64,000 nt of DNA from a virus, in the IMG/VR virus record IMGVR_UViG_3300031552_000001, positions 32,001 to 96,000 of that record; one strand, written 5' to 3'. The notes below the pieces were generated by a model, which made no database searches, was not told the DNA's origin, and saw only the letters and a program-made list of their open reading frames with translations. The position numbers and the translations under genes were made by a program. Shown piece after piece: positions 1 to 12,851 of this stretch. The stretch's first letter is position 1. The number at the start of each line of letters is the position of its first letter.

Positions 1-321
1 GGGGTGAGCAATTTAGTGAATGAAATTAAAAAGTCGGGTATTCGCCCTTCGGCTTTTGGCCTTTTAAAAGTAGCAGGGTATGGCTTCGCAGGAGGAGGAG
101 GAAATATAGTAACTCAAGCTGCTCGGCTACTGGACATTCCGTGCTTTCCCATACAAGAGGGTATGTTTACTTCAAACGACCCATATGCGGTCACTCGAAT
201 TTTGAGGAACCTCATCGCTTCTACTCCAGTAGGTGCGAAAAGTACTCGAGTCTCGTCTAGGAAATCTCTCATAGAGGAGATTCTAGCCACCAAGCTGCTA
301 AAAAAACCTGTTTGGGCATAG
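1..321 (+). CDS. 3' end of a hypothetical protein (frame open to the window edge); possibly the C-terminus of a vWA-like protein
   Basis: Frame open from base 1 to TAG at 319-321. The family guess is weak. Confidence 0.45.
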   Translation, partial: GVSNLVNEIKKSGIRPSAFGLLKVAGYGFAGGGGNIVTQAARLLDIPCFPIQEGMFTSNDPYAVTRILRNLIASTPVGAKSTRVSSRKSLIEEILATKLLKKPVWA

Positions 322-399
322 ATAAGTTCTATTCATACAGCGGGTTATCTTTAAAGATGCCCGCTGTATTTCAATTTGACCCTGTGGGAGGGTTCGACA

Positions 400-1350
400 A
401 TGTCGTGGAAAGAGCTGTTGTCAAAGACAAAGCAAGAGGTTTTACCTTGGTTTGGTTTGTCAACAATCCATAATGCCTATCGGTCGTGGACTCTAGTTGG
501 AGATAGTCCGCTTGAGCATGGGTGGTACAAATTCGATGTTACGGCAGGCCGAGCTGCTACTTTGGCAAGTCCAGAACCCCAACCAGGTAATCTGGAGTGG
601 GCAGACGGCCAACAGAAGATAAAAGGATATGTTGTAGGGGGTAGATTTATACCCGACGGCCGCCGCGTTATAACAGACCCCTCAAAACTGGTACAACAGA
701 CACAGCCTCTCTACTGTATAGAACCGGGGCTAGAAAGGTTCGCTAGGGCAACTGCCGTTCTGGACAGGCATACCTACCTAGTTTTCATGCAGCAGGAGTT
801 TCCGGAGGCTGCCGATGAAGAAGTAACGATAGCCTACCGAGAGCGCAGATCTTCTTTAAAAGGAATTAAAGGAGTAACTCCTGCTCTCGACCTCGCCTTT
901 AGATGGATGACGCATCAACGGAATGTTGTCGAAGAACGTAGGCGCCAACTCGAGCTCTTACGAGAGGAGGAAGAAAAGAAGATAGCTGAAGCTGAAAGGT
1001 ACCAAAAGCTACTAAAAGAATCCGGAAGCGCCGTAGGCAGAAGAGCGATTGCGGAGCAGGATTTTGAGACTGCGGCAAGGGAGGCGTTGAATATCTCAGG
1101 TGCTACGCTTCTGGACGCTAGACCATCTAAAAACAGAGGGGAAATGGTAGTTCAGTACAGATTCGACCACAGGGGTTTGGAGTGCGTAGTGGACGCAAAA
1201 ACCCTTAGAGTGATTGACGCTGGAATCTGTCTTACTGACGAATACACGGGCGAAAAGGGAGATGCCCGTTTCACTCTTGAGTCTCTACCCGGAGTGGTCC
1301 GGGAAGCCATTCGAGCTGGTTCGCTGGTGGTATGGAGGCATGCAGATTGA
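400..1350 (+). CDS. Hypothetical protein with central coiled coil and candidate divergent E2/UBC-like C-terminal domain
   Basis: GGAGG RBS before ATG at 400. Glu/Arg/Lys-rich helix, then helix + beta-meander + IDAGICLTD (Cys codon 1228-1230). The E2 call is inference. Confidence 0.6.
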   Translation: MSWKELLSKTKQEVLPWFGLSTIHNAYRSWTLVGDSPLEHGWYKFDVTAGRAATLASPEPQPGNLEWADGQQKIKGYVVGGRFIPDGRRVITDPSKLVQQTQPLYCIEPGLERFARATAVLDRHTYLVFMQQEFPEAADEEVTIAYRERRSSLKGIKGVTPALDLAFRWMTHQRNVVEERRRQLELLREEEEKKIAEAERYQKLLKESGSAVGRRAIAEQDFETAAREALNISGATLLDARPSKNRGEMVVQYRFDHRGLECVVDAKTLRVIDAGICLTDEYTGEKGDARFTLESLPGVVREAIRAGSLVVWRHAD

Positions 1351-3449: not shown

Positions 3450-4634
3450 ATGAAGCTGACAGCAGTAATAGGGGCAAACTACGGAGATGAAGGAAAAGGC
3501 CGCGTAGTTGACTACTTCTCAAACAAAGGCTCTTTGGTCGTACGGTTTAACGGTGGAGCCCAAGCAGGGCATACTGTAGTCACCAAAGTAGGCCGTAGAC
3601 ATGTTTTTAGGCATTTCGGCTCTGGCACATTCAAAAATGCGCCCACCTATCTTTCTAGGCACTTCATAGTTAACCCCGTACTTTTTCGTCCGGAGTATCA
3701 GCAATTATATGCGTTAGCGTTAGATACAAATGTCGTTGCGCACCCCGAATGTATCGTTACCACGCCCTGGGATATGTTTCTCAATCAGTCCTGTGAGAAG
3801 AGCAAATGCGTCTCTCACAGAGGAAGCTGCGGGTGTGGAATAAACGAGACAGTAGTGAGGAATCAGTCGAAGTTTAAACTCACCCTTAGAGACCTAAGCA
3901 GCCCAAACCTGCCAAGTACGTTATTTTCAATAAAAGACGAGTGGGTTCCGCACAGGGTGTCGGAACTGGGGCTTAGTTACGGAGAACTCTCTTCTTTGAT
4001 AAGAGAACCTGAGTGGGCTTATCGATTCTTGGATGACTGTAGGTTTTTCTTGAAAAAGTGCAGGGTTCTCCCCTTACATGAAGGGGATACCTCTCCTAAC
4101 TTTTCCAGCTTTCCTGATGCAAAACACGTCATCTTTGAAGGTGCTCAGGGTCTACGGTTAGACGAGTTAGGTCGCGATTTTCCTTTTGTTACTAGATCTC
4201 GGACGGGCCTCCCTAACGTATTGGACATTATTAGAAAAGAAGGGTTTAACGACACTCTGGATGTCGTATACGTTACGCGCCCCTATCTCACTCGTCACGG
4301 TGCCGGTCCGCTGAATAACGAACTTACGGCTCCGCCTTACGCAGGAATTACTGAAAGGACTAATGTTTTCAACGCTAATCAAGGCCCCTTTCGATATGCT
4401 TGGTTAGATATAGACGCGCTAGCAAGAACTACTAAAGAAGACCTAAGCCTAGCGACTGACGTAAAAACAAACCCGAAATTTGCTATAACATGTTTGGACC
4501 AAATGCCCCGTACTTTTTCTGTCATAGCGGAGGGTAAATTGGTGATGGTCACTGCCAAAAAATTGGCATCTATGCTTTCGGACCGTACTGGCATAGAAGT
4601 GTGTATGATGACGCCCCCTCCTTCTCCTATCTAA
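3450..4634 (+). CDS. purA: Divergent adenylosuccinate synthetase family protein (PurA-like, not PurZ)
   Basis: GANYGDEGKG, GGAQAGHT, IFEGAQG, VTRS and YLTRHGAGP motifs. The aspartate-binding loop is atypical (see findings). Confidence 0.85.
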   Translation: MKLTAVIGANYGDEGKGRVVDYFSNKGSLVVRFNGGAQAGHTVVTKVGRRHVFRHFGSGTFKNAPTYLSRHFIVNPVLFRPEYQQLYALALDTNVVAHPECIVTTPWDMFLNQSCEKSKCVSHRGSCGCGINETVVRNQSKFKLTLRDLSSPNLPSTLFSIKDEWVPHRVSELGLSYGELSSLIREPEWAYRFLDDCRFFLKKCRVLPLHEGDTSPNFSSFPDAKHVIFEGAQGLRLDELGRDFPFVTRSRTGLPNVLDIIRKEGFNDTLDVVYVTRPYLTRHGAGPLNNELTAPPYAGITERTNVFNANQGPFRYAWLDIDALARTTKEDLSLATDVKTNPKFAITCLDQMPRTFSVIAEGKLVMVTAKKLASMLSDRTGIEVCMMTPPPSPI

Positions 4635-4751
4635 AAATAACCCGACACTCGGCCTTCAGCGCAGGCATTTTCATCTAGAACAGTCGGGTTCAATTAGTCT
4701 ATTTTGGCGCTGTGCCGCAGATTGGTAGTCATTCTAAAAAAGAGGTTTATC

Positions 4752-6743
4752 ATGAAACAGGTTACTTGGGTTTTTCTGTGTTTGAGCATCGTGTCGTGTT
4801 CGAGCGGCACGCTGTTCGTTCCTTTAGAGTCAAATCCGTGTGACTCGTGTGAAGAAGGAGAGGTTTGCAGCCAAGGCGAATGCATTTCTCCAATTGATTG
4901 TGAAGAGTTAGGGGGTGTTGTGGTCAAGGGGGGCGGCGCATGCCAGCTATGCGGCGACTTTGAGGTGGTGGGTACAGAAGAGTGCGATGATGGGGAAGAA
5001 ACCGAATTTTGCAACTCAGACTGCACTTTTACTGAGTGCGGGGACGCCATAGTGAACTTTGCCTCAGGAGAAGAGTGCGATGATGGAGAAAATAATGGCA
5101 GGTATCAAGGATGCACAAAAGAGTGCACAATTTCTCCTTACTGTGGAGGAGACAGTGCCGCGGTAGCTTGTGACGATCACGACGCATGTACAGTTGATGC
5201 TTGCAGTTACGACGGATGCACAAACACCTTCTCGTCTGACTTATGTCACCACCTTGCGTTCGACGTGGCGCCTATGAAGACAGTGTTCGTAGGTATGACC
5301 TGGCCGACGTTTTCTGTGCGAGTGGAGAATTCTCTGGGCTACCCGGTAAACATTTCCTCTCCTGTTACCTTAGTCTTATCAGGGGCGCTCAACAGAACCA
5401 TCGAAGCTACCCTCGTAGAAGGAGGTGCTTACTTCTCGACTCTTGCAGCATTCAAGATTGGAGCTGTAAGCATAGAAGCTAGCGTGCCTCTTATAGGCTC
5501 CACGTCAAGAACTGTTGCAGTTATTGACCCCTCTCCAGAGTGCAAGCTGGACGATGATTGCGATTTGGGTTTTGTGTGTAATGAGAATTGGGGAATTTGC
5601 GCGCTTCCTAACTGCAAATCTCAACCGGACTTCACTCCCTGTGAAGTAATAACAGACCCCGACCGCTCCTACGATATTTGCTTGGGGGGTAAATGCGAAT
5701 CTCCTGGCTGTGGAGAAGGTAACTGTAATTCTCCGGGGCCCAATTTCAAGATACCGGATACAGGAGCGGTGCTTTGTTATGGAGAGGATTCAGAAATTCC
5801 CTGCCCTAGTGAAGAAGAGGCCTATTATCTACAAGATGCTCAACAGGGGTGGGATTTTACCCATTCTGCGCCAGAAAGGTTCTCGATAGATGTGTCGTCT
5901 GGAAATAAAGTGATAACAGATACTATCACTAATTTGATGTGGGAAGGCTGCACTCAAGGTTATGACAACTGCTCTGACCTAGGTGGGGTTTGCGGTCCTA
6001 TGTGCGACTGGAGTGAATCTATAGCTTATTGTGATTCTTTAATGTGGGGAGGGTACACAGATTGGAGGTTGCCTAATTCCCAGGAACTTCTGTCTATTAT
6101 CGACTACCGCCATCTCACTCCGGCGCTAGACAAAGAAGTGTTCGACGACTTAGGTGTATACCCTGGCGCGATGTATTGGACATCTGACAGCTCTCTATAC
6201 GAAAAATCTATGGGGCTCACAGTAGATTTTCGAGATGGGGAGACGTCAGTTCAAGATAAAAGCCACGAAATTCCTACTCGTTGCGTAAGAGGGCGCCCTC
6301 ATCTCATAAACTACAATAGGTTTGAAAAAACAGAAGGAGCGTATCCCACGGTTTTAGATACTACTACGGGGCTGATGTGGCAGGGTTGTTTAGCTAGCTC
6401 TAATTCCGTCTGTAACCCTAATTACACCTCCAAATATCGATGGGATGGAGCTTTGTTCTATTGCGAAAATTTAGAATGGGGAGGCTATAGTGATTGGCGG
6501 CTCCCTAATGTAAAAGAAACACACAGTTTGATAAATCACAGAGAGCGTTCGAGAGTCGACTCCACTATGTTTCCTATGGTGTCCAATCAGTCCCTAATTT
6601 GGACATCTACGCCATCTCCAAAAATTAGTGGAGGATCGTCTACAAAAAAAGAGGCATGGAGGGCGCTTTTCGGCTCTTACGACAGTATAAGTTCTGGCAG
6701 CAAGGAAGAGATGCTTGAAGTCATGTGCGTAAGAGACCCATAA
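4752..6743 (+). CDS. Secreted Cys-rich lipoprotein with myxococcal-type Cys repeats and two tandem Lcl/DUF1566 domains
   Basis: Signal/lipobox MKQVTWVFLCLSIVSC. CGDAIVNFASGEECDDG-type repeats. Two copies of D..T.LMW.GC...W..A..YC..L.WGGY.DWRLPN..E..S...W.S...CVR. Confidence 0.85.
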   Translation: MKQVTWVFLCLSIVSCSSGTLFVPLESNPCDSCEEGEVCSQGECISPIDCEELGGVVVKGGGACQLCGDFEVVGTEECDDGEETEFCNSDCTFTECGDAIVNFASGEECDDGENNGRYQGCTKECTISPYCGGDSAAVACDDHDACTVDACSYDGCTNTFSSDLCHHLAFDVAPMKTVFVGMTWPTFSVRVENSLGYPVNISSPVTLVLSGALNRTIEATLVEGGAYFSTLAAFKIGAVSIEASVPLIGSTSRTVAVIDPSPECKLDDDCDLGFVCNENWGICALPNCKSQPDFTPCEVITDPDRSYDICLGGKCESPGCGEGNCNSPGPNFKIPDTGAVLCYGEDSEIPCPSEEEAYYLQDAQQGWDFTHSAPERFSIDVSSGNKVITDTITNLMWEGCTQGYDNCSDLGGVCGPMCDWSESIAYCDSLMWGGYTDWRLPNSQELLSIIDYRHLTPALDKEVFDDLGVYPGAMYWTSDSSLYEKSMGLTVDFRDGETSVQDKSHEIPTRCVRGRPHLINYNRFEKTEGAYPTVLDTTTGLMWQGCLASSNSVCNPNYTSKYRWDGALFYCENLEWGGYSDWRLPNVKETHSLINHRERSRVDSTMFPMVSNQSLIWTSTPSPKISGGSSTKKEAWRALFGSYDSISSGSKEEMLEVMCVRDP

Positions 6744-6847: not shown

Positions 6848-7096
6848 ATGAGAAAAACACCAAAAGACACCCCAGGCCTTAAAGCTTGCGGGTGTAAAAA
6901 TTCGAACGTGTTAACTTGTTATGTTTATGATGCTAGCTTTACTGGTGTCCGAGAGCATTACGTACAGTGTCAGTCTTGCGGAAGTGGAACAAGAGTGACT
7001 TCCACTAAAGCTGAAGCTCAGCGCTTATGGAATATTAGACAGCTACAATGGATAAACCCAAAGAAATGGCGTTTTAAAGAGGGTAAAGAATGCTAG
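6848..7096 (+). CDS. Lar (restriction alleviation)-family Zn-ribbon protein
   Basis: CGCK...YVQCQSCG...EAQRLWNIR matches the Lar family pattern (CxxC pairs, A...WN.R). Confidence 0.65.
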   Translation: MRKTPKDTPGLKACGCKNSNVLTCYVYDASFTGVREHYVQCQSCGSGTRVTSTKAEAQRLWNIRQLQWINPKKWRFKEGKEC

Positions 7097-7485
7097 AAGC
7101 GGCTGCTGTGTTTGATTTAAACTTCAACGAGTTTTATGGACATTATCCTGACGGAAGAACCGACTCTTGGATACCTGACTCTCGATCTTTGTGGGAATTT
7201 ATTTGGGAGCACCGAGTAGAAGTAGGGGGAGTCGCCCACACGCATCCGTGGGATGGGGAGGCTTATCCGTCACAAACAGACATAACCACGTTCGCTGCCA
7301 TAGAAACAGGGCTCGGTAAAAGACTTCTGTGGCCAATTATTACTATGACAGAAACTAGATGTTTCTCATTCAACAAACTAATGCGAGAGTACACAGATAC
7401 TTTGTTTCTCATTAACATTCCGCAGCATACAGAGGCATTACGTATTCTTGCGGAAAACCTGCGACAAAAGTCGCTAGGAGGATAA
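7090..7485 (+). CDS. JAB/MPN+ (Mov34) metallopeptidase
   Basis: GVAHTHPWDGEAYPSQTD = HxH-x7-S-x2-D JAMM motif. Confidence 0.88.
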   Translation: MLEAAAVFDLNFNEFYGHYPDGRTDSWIPDSRSLWEFIWEHRVEVGGVAHTHPWDGEAYPSQTDITTFAAIETGLGKRLLWPIITMTETRCFSFNKLMREYTDTLFLINIPQHTEALRILAENLRQKSLGG

Positions 7486-7486
7486 C

Positions 7487-7774
7487 ATGGGTGGAATGGA
7501 TTTGGTACCGATTGTAACCGAGTTGTCTTCAGCAAGGCTCACTGTTACCTATAAAGGAGAACAGGGGGACCTGCCGGACAGCGTAGAGTATGACACGCCC
7601 GACGATGTCATAAAACAAATAGCGAAAGAGTCCATTCGTGGCGGGTATGTGCCAGGGATTTCAGCAGACCCGGACGCGGAGTTTGATGACTTTGTAGTGG
7701 ATAGATTTTCTGCTAGAGAGGGCGCTCCTATACCTCGGATCAGCCTCAGGCCGAAAACTCCGTTCGGCAGTTAG
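7487..7774 (+). CDS. Ubiquitin-like (beta-grasp) protein, predicted
   Basis: 95 aa, beta-beta-alpha-beta-beta pattern, ends LRPKTPFGS. Directly downstream of the JAB gene. Confidence 0.7.
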   Translation: MGGMDLVPIVTELSSARLTVTYKGEQGDLPDSVEYDTPDDVIKQIAKESIRGGYVPGISADPDAEFDDFVVDRFSAREGAPIPRISLRPKTPFGS

Positions 7775-8432: not shown

Positions 8433-8662
8433 AACATAGCCAGACTGCCTCCTACAACAACCTTTCCGGCAAAGTAATTCATGTCGGCGTAGGGATTCAT
8501 GCCGTTGTAAAGGAATTTTGCAGGGAACGTAACTTACACATGAGAAACTTTACAGAAGAGGCTCTAGATAGAGCTATGTTTGTGACAAAAGAAGAAGAAA
8601 GTTACGAAACTGAGCATAGAAAGAACAAAAATGAAGAAAAGACATCTGTCTCTGCCGATTGA
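8429..8662 (+). CDS. Ribbon-helix-helix-like DNA-binding protein
   Basis: KVIHVGVGIHAVVKEFCRERNLHMRNFTEEALDRAM strand-helix-helix pattern. ATGA overlap with the upstream stop. Confidence 0.55.
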   Translation: MKHSQTASYNNLSGKVIHVGVGIHAVVKEFCRERNLHMRNFTEEALDRAMFVTKEEESYETEHRKNKNEEKTSVSAD

Positions 8663-9452
8663 GTGCGGAGAAAAAACTTGTGCTTCTCAAAAAGGAAAGT
8701 TCTGCGAGTTTTTGTATGTAGAGAGATTTGGTACAACCCCCTTCTGCAAATTGTTTTCTGAACAGTTAAGAATAAAGGGGCATGTTCCCTTGGAAGAGGT
8801 AGACGGGTGGTTGCAGCGTCATCCAAGGTGTCTCGAGCTCGAAAGCAAGTTAGAGGCCCTGCCTTTAGAAAACTTCTCGGATAAAAATATCCGACTTTTC
8901 GGAAACGAGTTGTCTCTTACAGGGGCCTTATTCTCGAGTAATGAGGAAGGGTACATCTGCTTATTTCCTACTCAAAAAGCGCCACCTAACATAGCAGTCA
9001 TGCCATTAGATATTGAGGAGTGGAAACACCTTCTCAAGCAATTAGACACTCAAGAGGTGGAAGTAATTCAAACCGCTTCAGATGGAACGGTTACCAAAGC
9101 AATTTTGAGAAAAAGTCAGAGACTTATCGAACAGAGGGTCTCCTGGAGTGTATTTCGACGAGACAGCTACCGTTGCAGGTATTGTGGCGCCACTGGGGTT
9201 CCGCTGACCGTAGACCATTTAGTTCTATGGGAAGAAGGGGGGCCCAGCACAGAAGATAACCTCCTTACTGCCTGCCGCCCCTGCAATAAGACTAGAGGTA
9301 ACTTGCCATATGAAGAATGGCTTAAACACCCTTACTACCTTGAGAAAGCACGCAACGGCCTCTCGAGAGGACAGCAATGCGCCTTAGCGGCTATTGTGCC
9401 TCGCCTAAAAGACATTGAGCGTAGAGTGTCCAAACGTTCAACAAGAAAATGA
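8631..9452 (+). CDS. HNH endonuclease (McrA-type C-terminal domain) with Cys-rich N-terminal domain
   Basis: VFRRDSYRCRYCG...LTVDHLV...GGPSTEDNLLTACRPCNKTRG. Confidence 0.85.
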   Translation: MKKRHLSLPIECGEKTCASQKGKFCEFLYVERFGTTPFCKLFSEQLRIKGHVPLEEVDGWLQRHPRCLELESKLEALPLENFSDKNIRLFGNELSLTGALFSSNEEGYICLFPTQKAPPNIAVMPLDIEEWKHLLKQLDTQEVEVIQTASDGTVTKAILRKSQRLIEQRVSWSVFRRDSYRCRYCGATGVPLTVDHLVLWEEGGPSTEDNLLTACRPCNKTRGNLPYEEWLKHPYYLEKARNGLSRGQQCALAAIVPRLKDIERRVSKRSTRK

Positions 9453-11546: not shown

Positions 11547-12851
11547 TCAAGTTACGATACCTAACGTAAGGGCGTTCGAGCGGTGACCGTTACTCACTAC
11601 CACAAGGGAGGCAGAGTCGCCGTTAGCAGAGCCCGTAAAGTCGCTGACTGCCATGGCGATTGCTGTATCCGTAATGGTACCGTTAACGGTCTGTTCAAGA
11701 TTGTTGACTAGTACTTCGACTCCTGACCCTACACCGCCTGCAAGTGGGGTAGCCGCTGCCACAACAACGGGATCTCCGCCGCCGCCGGAAACAGCAACTT
11801 GCACGAGGGCATGTGCCGCAGCATAAGCGTCGACGGCCGCTTTCACGTCTGCGGCAGTGGAGGTGCCCGTATTGAGCGTAACAGTAATCGCCGTACCCAC
11901 TACAGCAACAGATAGGGCACCACCAGTTGCCAGTTCGACCGTAATGGAATTACCAGGCGTACCTGGACGGTTGGCACTAAAAGCTAGAGAAGCGGCCCCC
12001 GTACCAAAAGTATACGAAGCAAAAGACTGCCCCTGGAGAAAATTATCTCCGGCAATTGCCGCGGCAACGGGAGACCCTGCAATACTCACAGAAGTGCCTC
12101 CTGTTACTTTACCGATAAGCGGATAGTCCGCTTCTGGGGTACGGATAGCCAGACTCAGAGTGTTTGTAAGACGACCATTGGTACGCACTTGGAGAGCCGC
12201 AGAGTCGGCATCTGAAATCCCGCTCAAGTCAAAAATGGCTGTAAAGCCCGTAGCCGTAACTGCGGAGACCACGGTTTGGTCGACGCCGTTTAACAGGACT
12301 TCAAAGCCCGAGCCCACTCCACCAGAAAGAGCTGTTGCAACTGCATCAAGTACGGTACCACCGCCACCGCCAGAGACAGCCACTTGCACGAGGGCATGAG
12401 CGTCCGCATCGGCGTCAATAGCGGCCTTCACCGCAGCAGCCGTAGAACCCGCGGCCGCTAAGGTCACAGTAATAGCGGTGCCTACAACTGCAACGGAAAG
12501 AGCTCCGACGCCAGTAGTCAAAGCCACTGTAATGCTGTTTCCGTCAGTGCCGGGTCGATTAGCAGTGAATGCCAAAGAGGCGGTAGTCAGCCCCAAGGTC
12601 AAAGTAGCCGCAACCTGGTCTTGAAGAAGGTCGGAACCTACAACACCGTATGTGGCAGTAGGGTCTTGCTTATCAATAGCGCCTCCCCCTACCACCTGAG
12701 TAAGTTGAGGATATCCAGAGAGCGACTCAAGGGTGACCATAGCCTCCTCTACGTCATCTCGAAGATCTTGGACTTCCGCCTGTAAACCGCCACTTCCTCG
12801 AACCAAATGAGGCTTGTCAGGGCCCTTTGAACCGAATGCCTTTGATGCCAT
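11547..12851 (-). CDS. Tail-associated structural protein with two tandem ~195-aa repeats
   Basis: Repeat ASLAF.ANRPGT.GNSITV.L...ALSVAVVGTAITVTL...STAA.VKAA.DA...AHALVQVAVSGGGG occurs twice, 585 nt apart. Located between sheath and tube genes. Confidence 0.7.
   Translation of the reverse strand: MASKAFGSKGPDKPHLVRGSGGLQAEVQDLRDDVEEAMVTLESLSGYPQLTQVVGGGAIDKQDPTATYGVVGSDLLQDQVAATLTLGLTTASLAFTANRPGTDGNSITVALTTGVGALSVAVVGTAITVTLAAAGSTAAAVKAAIDADADAHALVQVAVSGGGGGTVLDAVATALSGGVGSGFEVLLNGVDQTVVSAVTATGFTAIFDLSGISDADSAALQVRTNGRLTNTLSLAIRTPEADYPLIGKVTGGTSVSIAGSPVAAAIAGDNFLQGQSFASYTFGTGAASLAFSANRPGTPGNSITVELATGGALSVAVVGTAITVTLNTGTSTAADVKAAVDAYAAAHALVQVAVSGGGGDPVVVAAATPLAGGVGSGVEVLVNNLEQTVNGTITDTAIAMAVSDFTGSANGDSASLVVVSNGHRSNALTLGIVT

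Follow-up and report, generated by a model that had tools for sequence, protein, structure and literature searches.

The cassette and its distribution

The window analysed here is a stretch of 64,000 nucleotides of phage DNA, bases 32001-96000 of the complete 192,137-bp IMG/VR record IMGVR_UViG_3300031552_000001. Near its start lies a gene for a 316-aa protein with one universally invariant cysteine, Cys277. The gene belongs to a cassette of five, all read on one strand in the order: ~640-aa vWA protein with a metal ion-dependent adhesion site (MIDAS), 316-aa protein, JAB peptidase, small ubiquitin-like protein (Ubl) and ~190-aa ThiF-type E1 (Table 1). A Shine-Dalgarno-like run, GGGAGGG, stands 9 nt before the ATG at position 400. 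A preliminary description of this DNA had taken the 316-aa protein for an orphan whose C-terminal domain could be the E2 missing from a JAB, Ubl and E1 set further downstream. The three downstream genes are indeed present, but the protein turns out not to be an orphan.

Table 1. Features of the Ubl cassette, with positions in the window (or locus numbers)
Feature	Position	Strand	Basis
316-aa cysteine protein, fixed member of the Ubl cassette	400..1350	+	Open reading frame, translation, homologues, synteny
N-terminal beta-rich domain, residues 1-135	400..804	+	AlphaFold2
Long E/R/K-rich helix, residues 161-209	880..1026	+	AlphaFold2, pLDDT about 90
C-terminal alpha+beta domain, residues 211-316	1030..1347	+	AlphaFold2, modelled both within the full protein and by itself
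Cys277 codon, TGT, proposed Ubl-thioester site	1228..1230	+	Sole universally invariant Cys
vWA partner, 639 aa, 3' end in the window	1..321	+	Pfam VWA_2
JAB/JAMM peptidase, intact H-x-H...S-x-x-D	7090..7485	+	Pfam Prok-JAB
Ubiquitin-like carrier, 95 aa, ending ...RPKTPFG-S	7487..7774	+	Conserved C-terminus
Single-domain ThiF/MoeB-type E1, 191 aa	9465..10040	+	Pfam ThiF 3.3e-21; NCBIfam ThiF/MoeB
Twelve JAB-less bacterial loci	L060, L063-L066, L069-L071, L073, L075, L081, L085		

Homologues are numerous. Of the candidates scored in a word-indexed search, 607 proteins had E<=0.001, and the top 120 of these are 49-62% identical over their full length; an exhaustive profile search gave 480 cluster representatives (199 at E<=1e-30). 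The gene is thus part of a large family. Nearly all representatives have 290-350 aa and a single architecture, and they come from huge-phage contigs and from Myxococcota and Verrucomicrobiota genomes. A copy with 44% identity occurs in the GenBank phage Virus Rctr197k, where it is annotated only as hypothetical. No fusion to E1, JAB or Ubl was found among proteins of 554-2000 aa, and the C-terminal domain on its own appeared in just five short matches, which are probably contig-end fragments.

Does the protein occur apart from the Ubl genes? When the window proteins were compared with 50 viral loci by tblastn, the vWA protein was found in 49, JAB in 50, Ubl in 49 and E1 in 46, with a single gene order and a single strand. 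Hidden Markov models (HMMs) built from the viral genes located the same set in 79 bacterial loci at 26-49% identity; most of these are from Myxococcota and some from Verrucomicrobiota, while Leptonemataceae and Virgisporangium are represented by one genome each. The vWA gene lies immediately 5' of the gene for the 316-aa protein in 49/50 viral and 69/79 bacterial loci; in many loci its stop codon is 8-10 nt ahead of the next start, and JAB begins directly after the 316-aa protein. When the 9,764 open reading frames (ORFs) within 8-10 kb in 128 loci were clustered all against all, only five families proved conserved (128, 117, 114, 111 and 103 loci), the next being a mobile HNH family in 25. 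Some bacteria have Ubl and E1 outside the flank, and Ubl was still found once in each of five such myxobacterial genomes tested (5/5). Linkage of the five genes is established, and across the 50 viral and 79 bacterial loci homologues are not independent of JAB, Ubl and E1.

Between the gene for the 316-aa protein and JAB the window has a 5.7-kb block, encoding a J-domain protein, a second vWA protein, a PurA-like enzyme, a 679-aa Cys-rich protein and a Lar-like protein, that is found in none of the 50 related viral loci. The block is a local insertion, and the 6-9 kb between the 316-aa protein and JAB, Ubl and E1 is peculiar to this phage. Sequence comparison suggests that huge phages and some bacteria have a Ubl system, so far undescribed, in which the 316-aa protein is the fifth fixed subunit; the open-access literature and bioRxiv preprints, a coverage outside which most subscription-journal papers lie, yielded no description of the cassette.

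Conservation of Cys277

The preliminary description had pointed to the codon of Cys277 as the one whose conservation mattered. It lies at 1228-1230, as stated there, and reads TGT; the residue is conserved in 128/128 representatives, as is Gly275; Cys262 is conserved in 121/128. Among true homologues from the loci, with identities down to 26%, Cys277 is present in 99/99. (Five apparent exceptions in the combined set were left out because they are out-of-frame or frameshifted ORFs.) Codon usage at the site is mixed (TGC 79, TGT 37) and the neighbouring codons vary synonymously, so that selection acts on the amino acid. A disulfide or metal pair formed by Cys262 and Cys277 is ruled out because diverged myxobacterial homologues have lost Cys262 and have, for instance, Ile or Ala at this position.

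The residues of the C-terminal domain that are invariant when bacterial homologues are included are D273, G275, C277, L278, D288, L293, S295, L296 and P297, and those around Cys277 (D273, G275, L278 and D288) form the most conserved patch of the protein. The alignments contain no conserved His and no invariant Lys. A lone invariant Cys accompanied by invariant Asp and Gly, with no His, is more in keeping with a carrier of a thioester or persulfide than with a metal site or a protease.

Predicted structure

AlphaFold2 modelled the whole protein, using 31 homologues, with a mean predicted local distance difference test score (pLDDT) of 87.9, which establishes its anatomy. The N-terminal domain (residues 1-135) is modelled as what are probably two small OB-like barrels; it has weak OB/cold-shock matches and is a candidate partner- or RNA-binding part. 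The 49-residue helix that follows may, on the model, be a coiled coil or a single-helix spacer. The C-terminal domain, which gave the same elements when folded alone (pLDDT 84.2), has helices at 211-220 and 222-233 and strands at 236-242, 248-255, 258-265 and 270-273. After strand 4 comes the loop D273-A-G-I-C277-L and then a helix at 296-306 beginning LESLP. The succession of helix, short strands, Cys loop and final helix that had been read from the sequence agrees with this model.

Many homologues (those of loci L005, L006, L008, L010, L013 and others) carry an acidic C-terminal tail of 5-40 residues, often finishing in W or D (DDDW, EERW); the copy in this phage ends ...WRHAD. Such tails could dock on the MIDAS site of the vWA partner.

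Cys277 lies in the loop between the strand at 270-273 and the helix at 296-306, as the catalytic Cys does in an E2, and a helix with a four-stranded meander is a common arrangement. The HPN motif is absent upstream of Cys277, as the preliminary description had noted, and it is absent from the family consensus as well. This is not decisive, given that several bacterial E2-like proteins also lack HPN (PMC1779556). The G-x-I-C-L context that had been taken as E2-like needs correction: the motif is G-I-C-L, with Gly at -2 and not at the -3 typical of E2 enzymes.

Scans of the protein against Pfam, PHROGs, NCBIfam and PADLOC gave no match, and Pfam returned no UBC-like family for it at E<=0.1 nor for 42 C-terminal domains at E<=10. 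Foldseek found nothing at E<=0.001 in PDB or BFVD. A part-search of the ESM Atlas gave no usable feature match, and the structural matches listed there (DsbC_N, YbjN and a viral J-domain cluster) had template modelling scores of at most 0.55 with a poor Atlas model (pLDDT 0.51). Two matches from PDB sequence searches, DPY30 (E 0.01) and cholera toxin B (E 0.06, C-domain profile), were rejected as chance.

The partner proteins

The vWA gene begins 1,599 nt before the window (L003:12402-14321, where L003 is the locus of this phage). Its product has a complete MIDAS motif (D439-x-S-x-S, T502 and D529). It resembles TROVE/Ro60 clusters only by language-model (Atlas) features (0.89-0.92); a TROVE HMM had no match on the phage genome, and a PDB profile search of the vWA partner gave no TROVE/Ro60 match. 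That the protein may be Ro60-like is accordingly a lead.

The conserved residues of JAB are E3, H50, H52, S61 and D64. The Ubl, a putative beta-grasp protein, has a C-terminal R-P-K-(T/V)-P-F-G in every case; the residues after this motif are variable and number from 0 to more than 50. In the window it has Gly94 and a one-residue tail, and G94 is at least 95% conserved in the family. The bacterial loci that lack JAB provide a natural experiment. In these the Ubl ends exactly at the Gly in 12/12 cases, against 9/48 where JAB is present (Fisher p=2e-7), 39/48 JAB-bearing cassettes having a Ubl with a tail. That the Ubl ends in Gly and that its tails depend on JAB is established. Since the tail is absent from all JAB-less loci, the role of JAB appears to be tail trimming, by which it would expose the Gly, with the Gly carboxylate as the reactive end. 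The 316-aa protein is retained in the 12 JAB-less cassettes and therefore serves vWA, Ubl and E1 rather than JAB.

The E1 has GxGxxG and DCTDN motifs and an invariant Cys148 (89/89). It could be aligned with ThiF/MoeB as far as residue 124, with a ThiF offset of 32; carried forward, this offset places Cys148 near the crossover-loop cysteine of ThiF and suggests that the two may be equivalent.

Neighbouring genes and RNAs

Many tRNA genes lie on the same strand as the cassette in most viral loci scanned. At a distance of 10 kb or less from the cassette, related huge phages encode as many as 45 tRNAs and also a transfer-messenger RNA of their own (L004:15744-16101, L043:1034-1409 and L052:15504-15872). 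In the phage studied here, two elements of ~135 nt stand just 5' of the vWA gene, before the window (L003:11784-11919 and 11958-12091). Both span the full Rfam tRNA model (36 and 47 bits), are ~60 nt too long, and had no tRNA called by ARAGORN; they are tRNA-like RNAs with an insert.

A 15-bp hairpin occupies window positions 335-369, between the vWA stop (321) and the start of the 316-aa protein (400). The segment 318-400 has a minimum free energy of -31.4 kcal/mol (z -4.9 against shuffles). The hairpin may serve in termination, in attenuation or as a site of processing.

The gene at 1340-2371 overlaps the stop of the 316-aa protein by 11 nt. Its product has an N-terminal HPD J-domain (Pfam DnaJ, E 0.004); the ~270 aa after this domain include a kinase-like H-S-N stretch. 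None of the 50 related viral loci has the gene. A reading in which the upstream gene was Hsp70-like and the 316-aa protein a GrpE-like exchange factor for this J-domain protein was ruled out, because the upstream gene encodes a vWA protein and the J-domain gene occurs in 0/50 viral loci. At 3450-4634 lies a diverged adenylosuccinate synthetase homologue (Pfam 7.5e-39). Its best PHROG is phrog_1211 (4.5e-54), a PurZ-type family, a match that hints at 2-aminoadenine DNA. The 679-aa Cys-rich protein (4704-6743) has an N-terminal hydrophobic stretch and two C-terminal repeats that match phrog_16004 and phrog_4245, both of unknown function; it was found in this phage alone among the loci compared. 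An HNH endonuclease gene (8631-9452) is inserted between Ubl and E1. HNH genes stand at varying positions of the cassette in 21/50 viral loci, as would be expected of mobile nucleases.

A possible function for the 316-aa protein and its rivals

An E1, a Ubl and a peptidase are present in the cassette system, and Pfam, NCBIfam and PADLOC scans found no protein in it that matches any E2 model; the role of carrier is therefore vacant. There are two further fixed subunits, and the 316-aa protein has an invariant, apparently unpaired Cys in an E2-like place, so that a carrier is the likeliest single explanation for it. We accordingly propose, with a probability of roughly 45%, that it is an E2-like functional analogue which carries Ubl on Cys277. 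The proposal concerns a functional analogue, not a demonstrated member of the UBC family. Of the preliminary idea of a missing E2, the part about function is thus a reasonable hypothesis, given the linkage and the invariant Cys, whereas the label of divergent E2 is borne out neither by the sequence nor by the predicted fold.

We infer a thioester at Cys277, a direction of transfer and an acceptor as follows. JAB would cut the variable tail of Ubl and leave Gly94 exposed. The ThiF-type E1 would then adenylate Gly94, perhaps also holding Ubl on Cys148, and the activated Ubl would be handed to Cys277 of the 316-aa protein as a thioester. The acceptor would be chosen by the N-terminal beta-barrel domain together with the MIDAS vWA partner, which is possibly a Ro60-like RNA-binding ring.

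Several points weigh against Cys277 as a Ubl carrier. Neither UQ_con, the Prok-E2 families and RWD nor E2 structures in the PDB show any sequence or profile similarity to the protein. An hhalign comparison of a 78-sequence alignment of the C-terminal domain with 13 Cap2-type E2 domains (Pfam Prok-E2_B) from Myxococcota genomes gave a single alignment that sets Cys277 on the catalytic Cys of the E2 and the LESLP helix on the next E2 helix. Its score of 14.5 is within the controls, being reached by 43/300 column-shuffled ones and exceeded by the reversed one, and the alignment provides no evidence of kinship. Cys277 is just four residues past strand 4, which is closer to the place of HPN in an E2. 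The vWA partner has a nearly invariant cysteine of its own, C321 (100/101), in a conserved Q-I-C-E stretch outside the vWA part; Ubl might be relayed a second time here, or the residue may simply be buried. Some myxobacteria have the Ubl-E1 pair 5-10 kb away or on another contig, while vWA, the 316-aa protein and JAB stay joined. Finally, Ubl conjugation that is independent of any E2 exists in the SAMP/UbaA and TtuB/TtuC systems, and a carrier is perhaps not needed.

The last point leads to the main rival, which we regard as unlikely: the 316-aa protein would be a non-catalytic adaptor that bridges the (Ro60-like) vWA partner, RNA and the Ubl machinery by means of its barrels and long helix, with E1 alone activating and transferring Ubl as in SAMP/UbaA or TtuB/TtuC, and Cys277 would be a structural residue or a redox switch. 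A structural Cys, however, is rarely invariant over more than 100 homologues of 26-60% identity while another (Cys262) is freely lost, and the most conserved patch of the protein is the one next to Cys277. The same residue could instead hold sulfur. The Ubl would then be a carrier of the ThiS/MoaD/Urm1 type whose adenylate is turned into a thiocarboxylate by a persulfide on Cys277, for the thiolation of tRNAs or of the tRNA-like RNAs next to the cassette, with the RNA held by the OB-like N-terminal domain. The E1 is nearest to ThiF/MoeB, the cassette sits within tRNA gene arrays in most viral loci examined and is preceded in this phage by the tRNA-like RNAs with inserts, the N-terminal domain has its weak OB/cold-shock matches, and trimming of sulfur-carrier tails by a JAB peptidase is known from CysO/Mec. 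Even so a sulfur relay is quite improbable: among the families conserved within 8-10 kb in the 128 loci there is no PP-loop thiolase, no rhodanese and no cysteine desulfurase (host enzymes could serve), the Ubl ends in F-G and not in G-G, the 316-aa protein is without a nucleotide-binding motif, and known sulfur relays have no role for a vWA/MIDAS partner.

Descent from the UBC/RWD families is a separate and weaker claim than E2-like function, and we consider it distinctly unlikely. It would make the 316-aa protein an extremely diverged member from which the HPN stretch was deleted, so that strand 4 runs straight into G-I-C-L. The order of elements is the same, RWD, Ubc9 and Cap2-E2 are among the whole-domain matches of the C-terminal domain, the spacing (D at -4 and Pro at +14 from the Cys) is like that of Cap2-type E2 domains (short-loop bacterial forms), and HPN-less E2-like families exist in bacteria (PMC1779556); the sequence and profile comparisons given above are what tells against it. 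A constant companion of Ubl genes that has an invariant nucleophile might also be the acceptor of Ubl or a cysteine peptidase that removes it. Both are very improbable, there being neither an invariant Lys nor a conserved His for a Cys-His dyad, and a peptidase being already provided by JAB. A more speculative form of the carrier proposal, and a long shot, makes the cassette a machine that tags proteins under the guidance of RNA. A Ro60-like vWA ring and the tRNA-like RNAs would capture a tRNA-handling host factor, such as an anticodon nuclease or some other defence protein directed at RNA. The 316-aa protein, with a fold unrelated to UBC, would then take Ubl from the mini-E1 and pass it to the captured factor by way of Cys277, and possibly onward by way of Cys321 in the vWA partner. 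Were this true, there would be a second, independently evolved E2-like carrier, and an RNA surveillance particle would be tied to Ubl tagging.

Comparison with known systems

Like the cassette, the archaeal SAMP/UbaA/HvJAMM1 and Thermus TtuB/TtuC systems have an E1 of the MoeB/ThiF kind, a JAMM peptidase and a small Ubl with a terminal Gly, and they are linked to tRNA biology. Unlike the cassette Ubl, SAMP and TtuB have a GG terminus and act in addition as sulfur carriers, together with PP-loop partners, and we know of no fixed vWA or Cys-protein partners in these systems. CBASS (the cyclic oligonucleotide-based anti-phage signalling system) has Cap2, a fusion of E2 (Pfam Prok-E2_B) and E1, together with the JAB protein Cap3. 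No fusion of the 316-aa protein to E1 was found among proteins of 554-2000 aa, the profile comparison of the 316-aa protein with the 13 Cap2-type E2 domains was not significant, and Cap2 conjugates the cGAS-like enzyme itself, there being no separate Ubl.

Bil, as summarised in PMC11601596, is a bacterial anti-phage system of Ubl conjugation made up of BilA (Ubl), BilB (E2), BilC (JAB) and BilD (E1). Bil is like the cassette in that one operon encodes an E1, a JAB and a small Ubl and in that there is no E3 gene, the carrier being thought to select the target itself; a gene for a Cys-bearing protein directly 5' of JAB, as in many cassette loci, is another likeness. BilB is a recognisable UBC-type E2, whereas the 316-aa protein matches no E2 model, and BilD is a large E1 with IAD, AAD and CYS domains, whereas the cassette E1 is a single adenylation domain of 190 aa. 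Compared with Bil, the cassette adds a 640-aa MIDAS vWA protein, is mainly borne by huge phages and lies among tRNA genes. Bub is a diverged bacterial Ubl pathway whose E1 has no separate catalytic-Cys domain and whose carrier departs from the canonical E2 (PMC11601596), and in this it resembles the cassette. It differs in using Ser oxyesters and a DUF6527 serine protease (PMC11601596), whereas the cassette keeps the invariant C148 of E1, C277 and a JAB peptidase.

Ro60 (Rsr) particles with Y RNA, among them the Ro60 of the Thermus phage phiLo (PMC12135203; PMC4201824), resemble the cassette in that the vWA partner is alike by language-model features and tRNA-like RNAs stand just 5' of it; they differ in that neither the TROVE HMM nor the profile search of the PDB bears out the likeness of the vWA partner. 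The Ro60 papers searched, among them the one on the phage Ro60 structure, do not mention Ubl, E1 or JAB, and a survey of jumbo phages mentions TROVE proteins with no link to Ubl.

Work on Ubl conjugation in phages and bacteria is recent, and is represented by CBASS Cap2/Cap3, Bil and Bub. To our knowledge, all carriers described so far are recognisable relatives of UBC. If Cys277 carries Ubl, then either no known E2 is as diverged as the 316-aa protein, or the E2 step was invented separately. The parts of the cassette are all small and soluble-looking. Set beside the known systems, such a carrier would work with the smallest E1 among them and would be coupled to a MIDAS vWA protein, possibly a Ro60-like one, amid tRNA genes.
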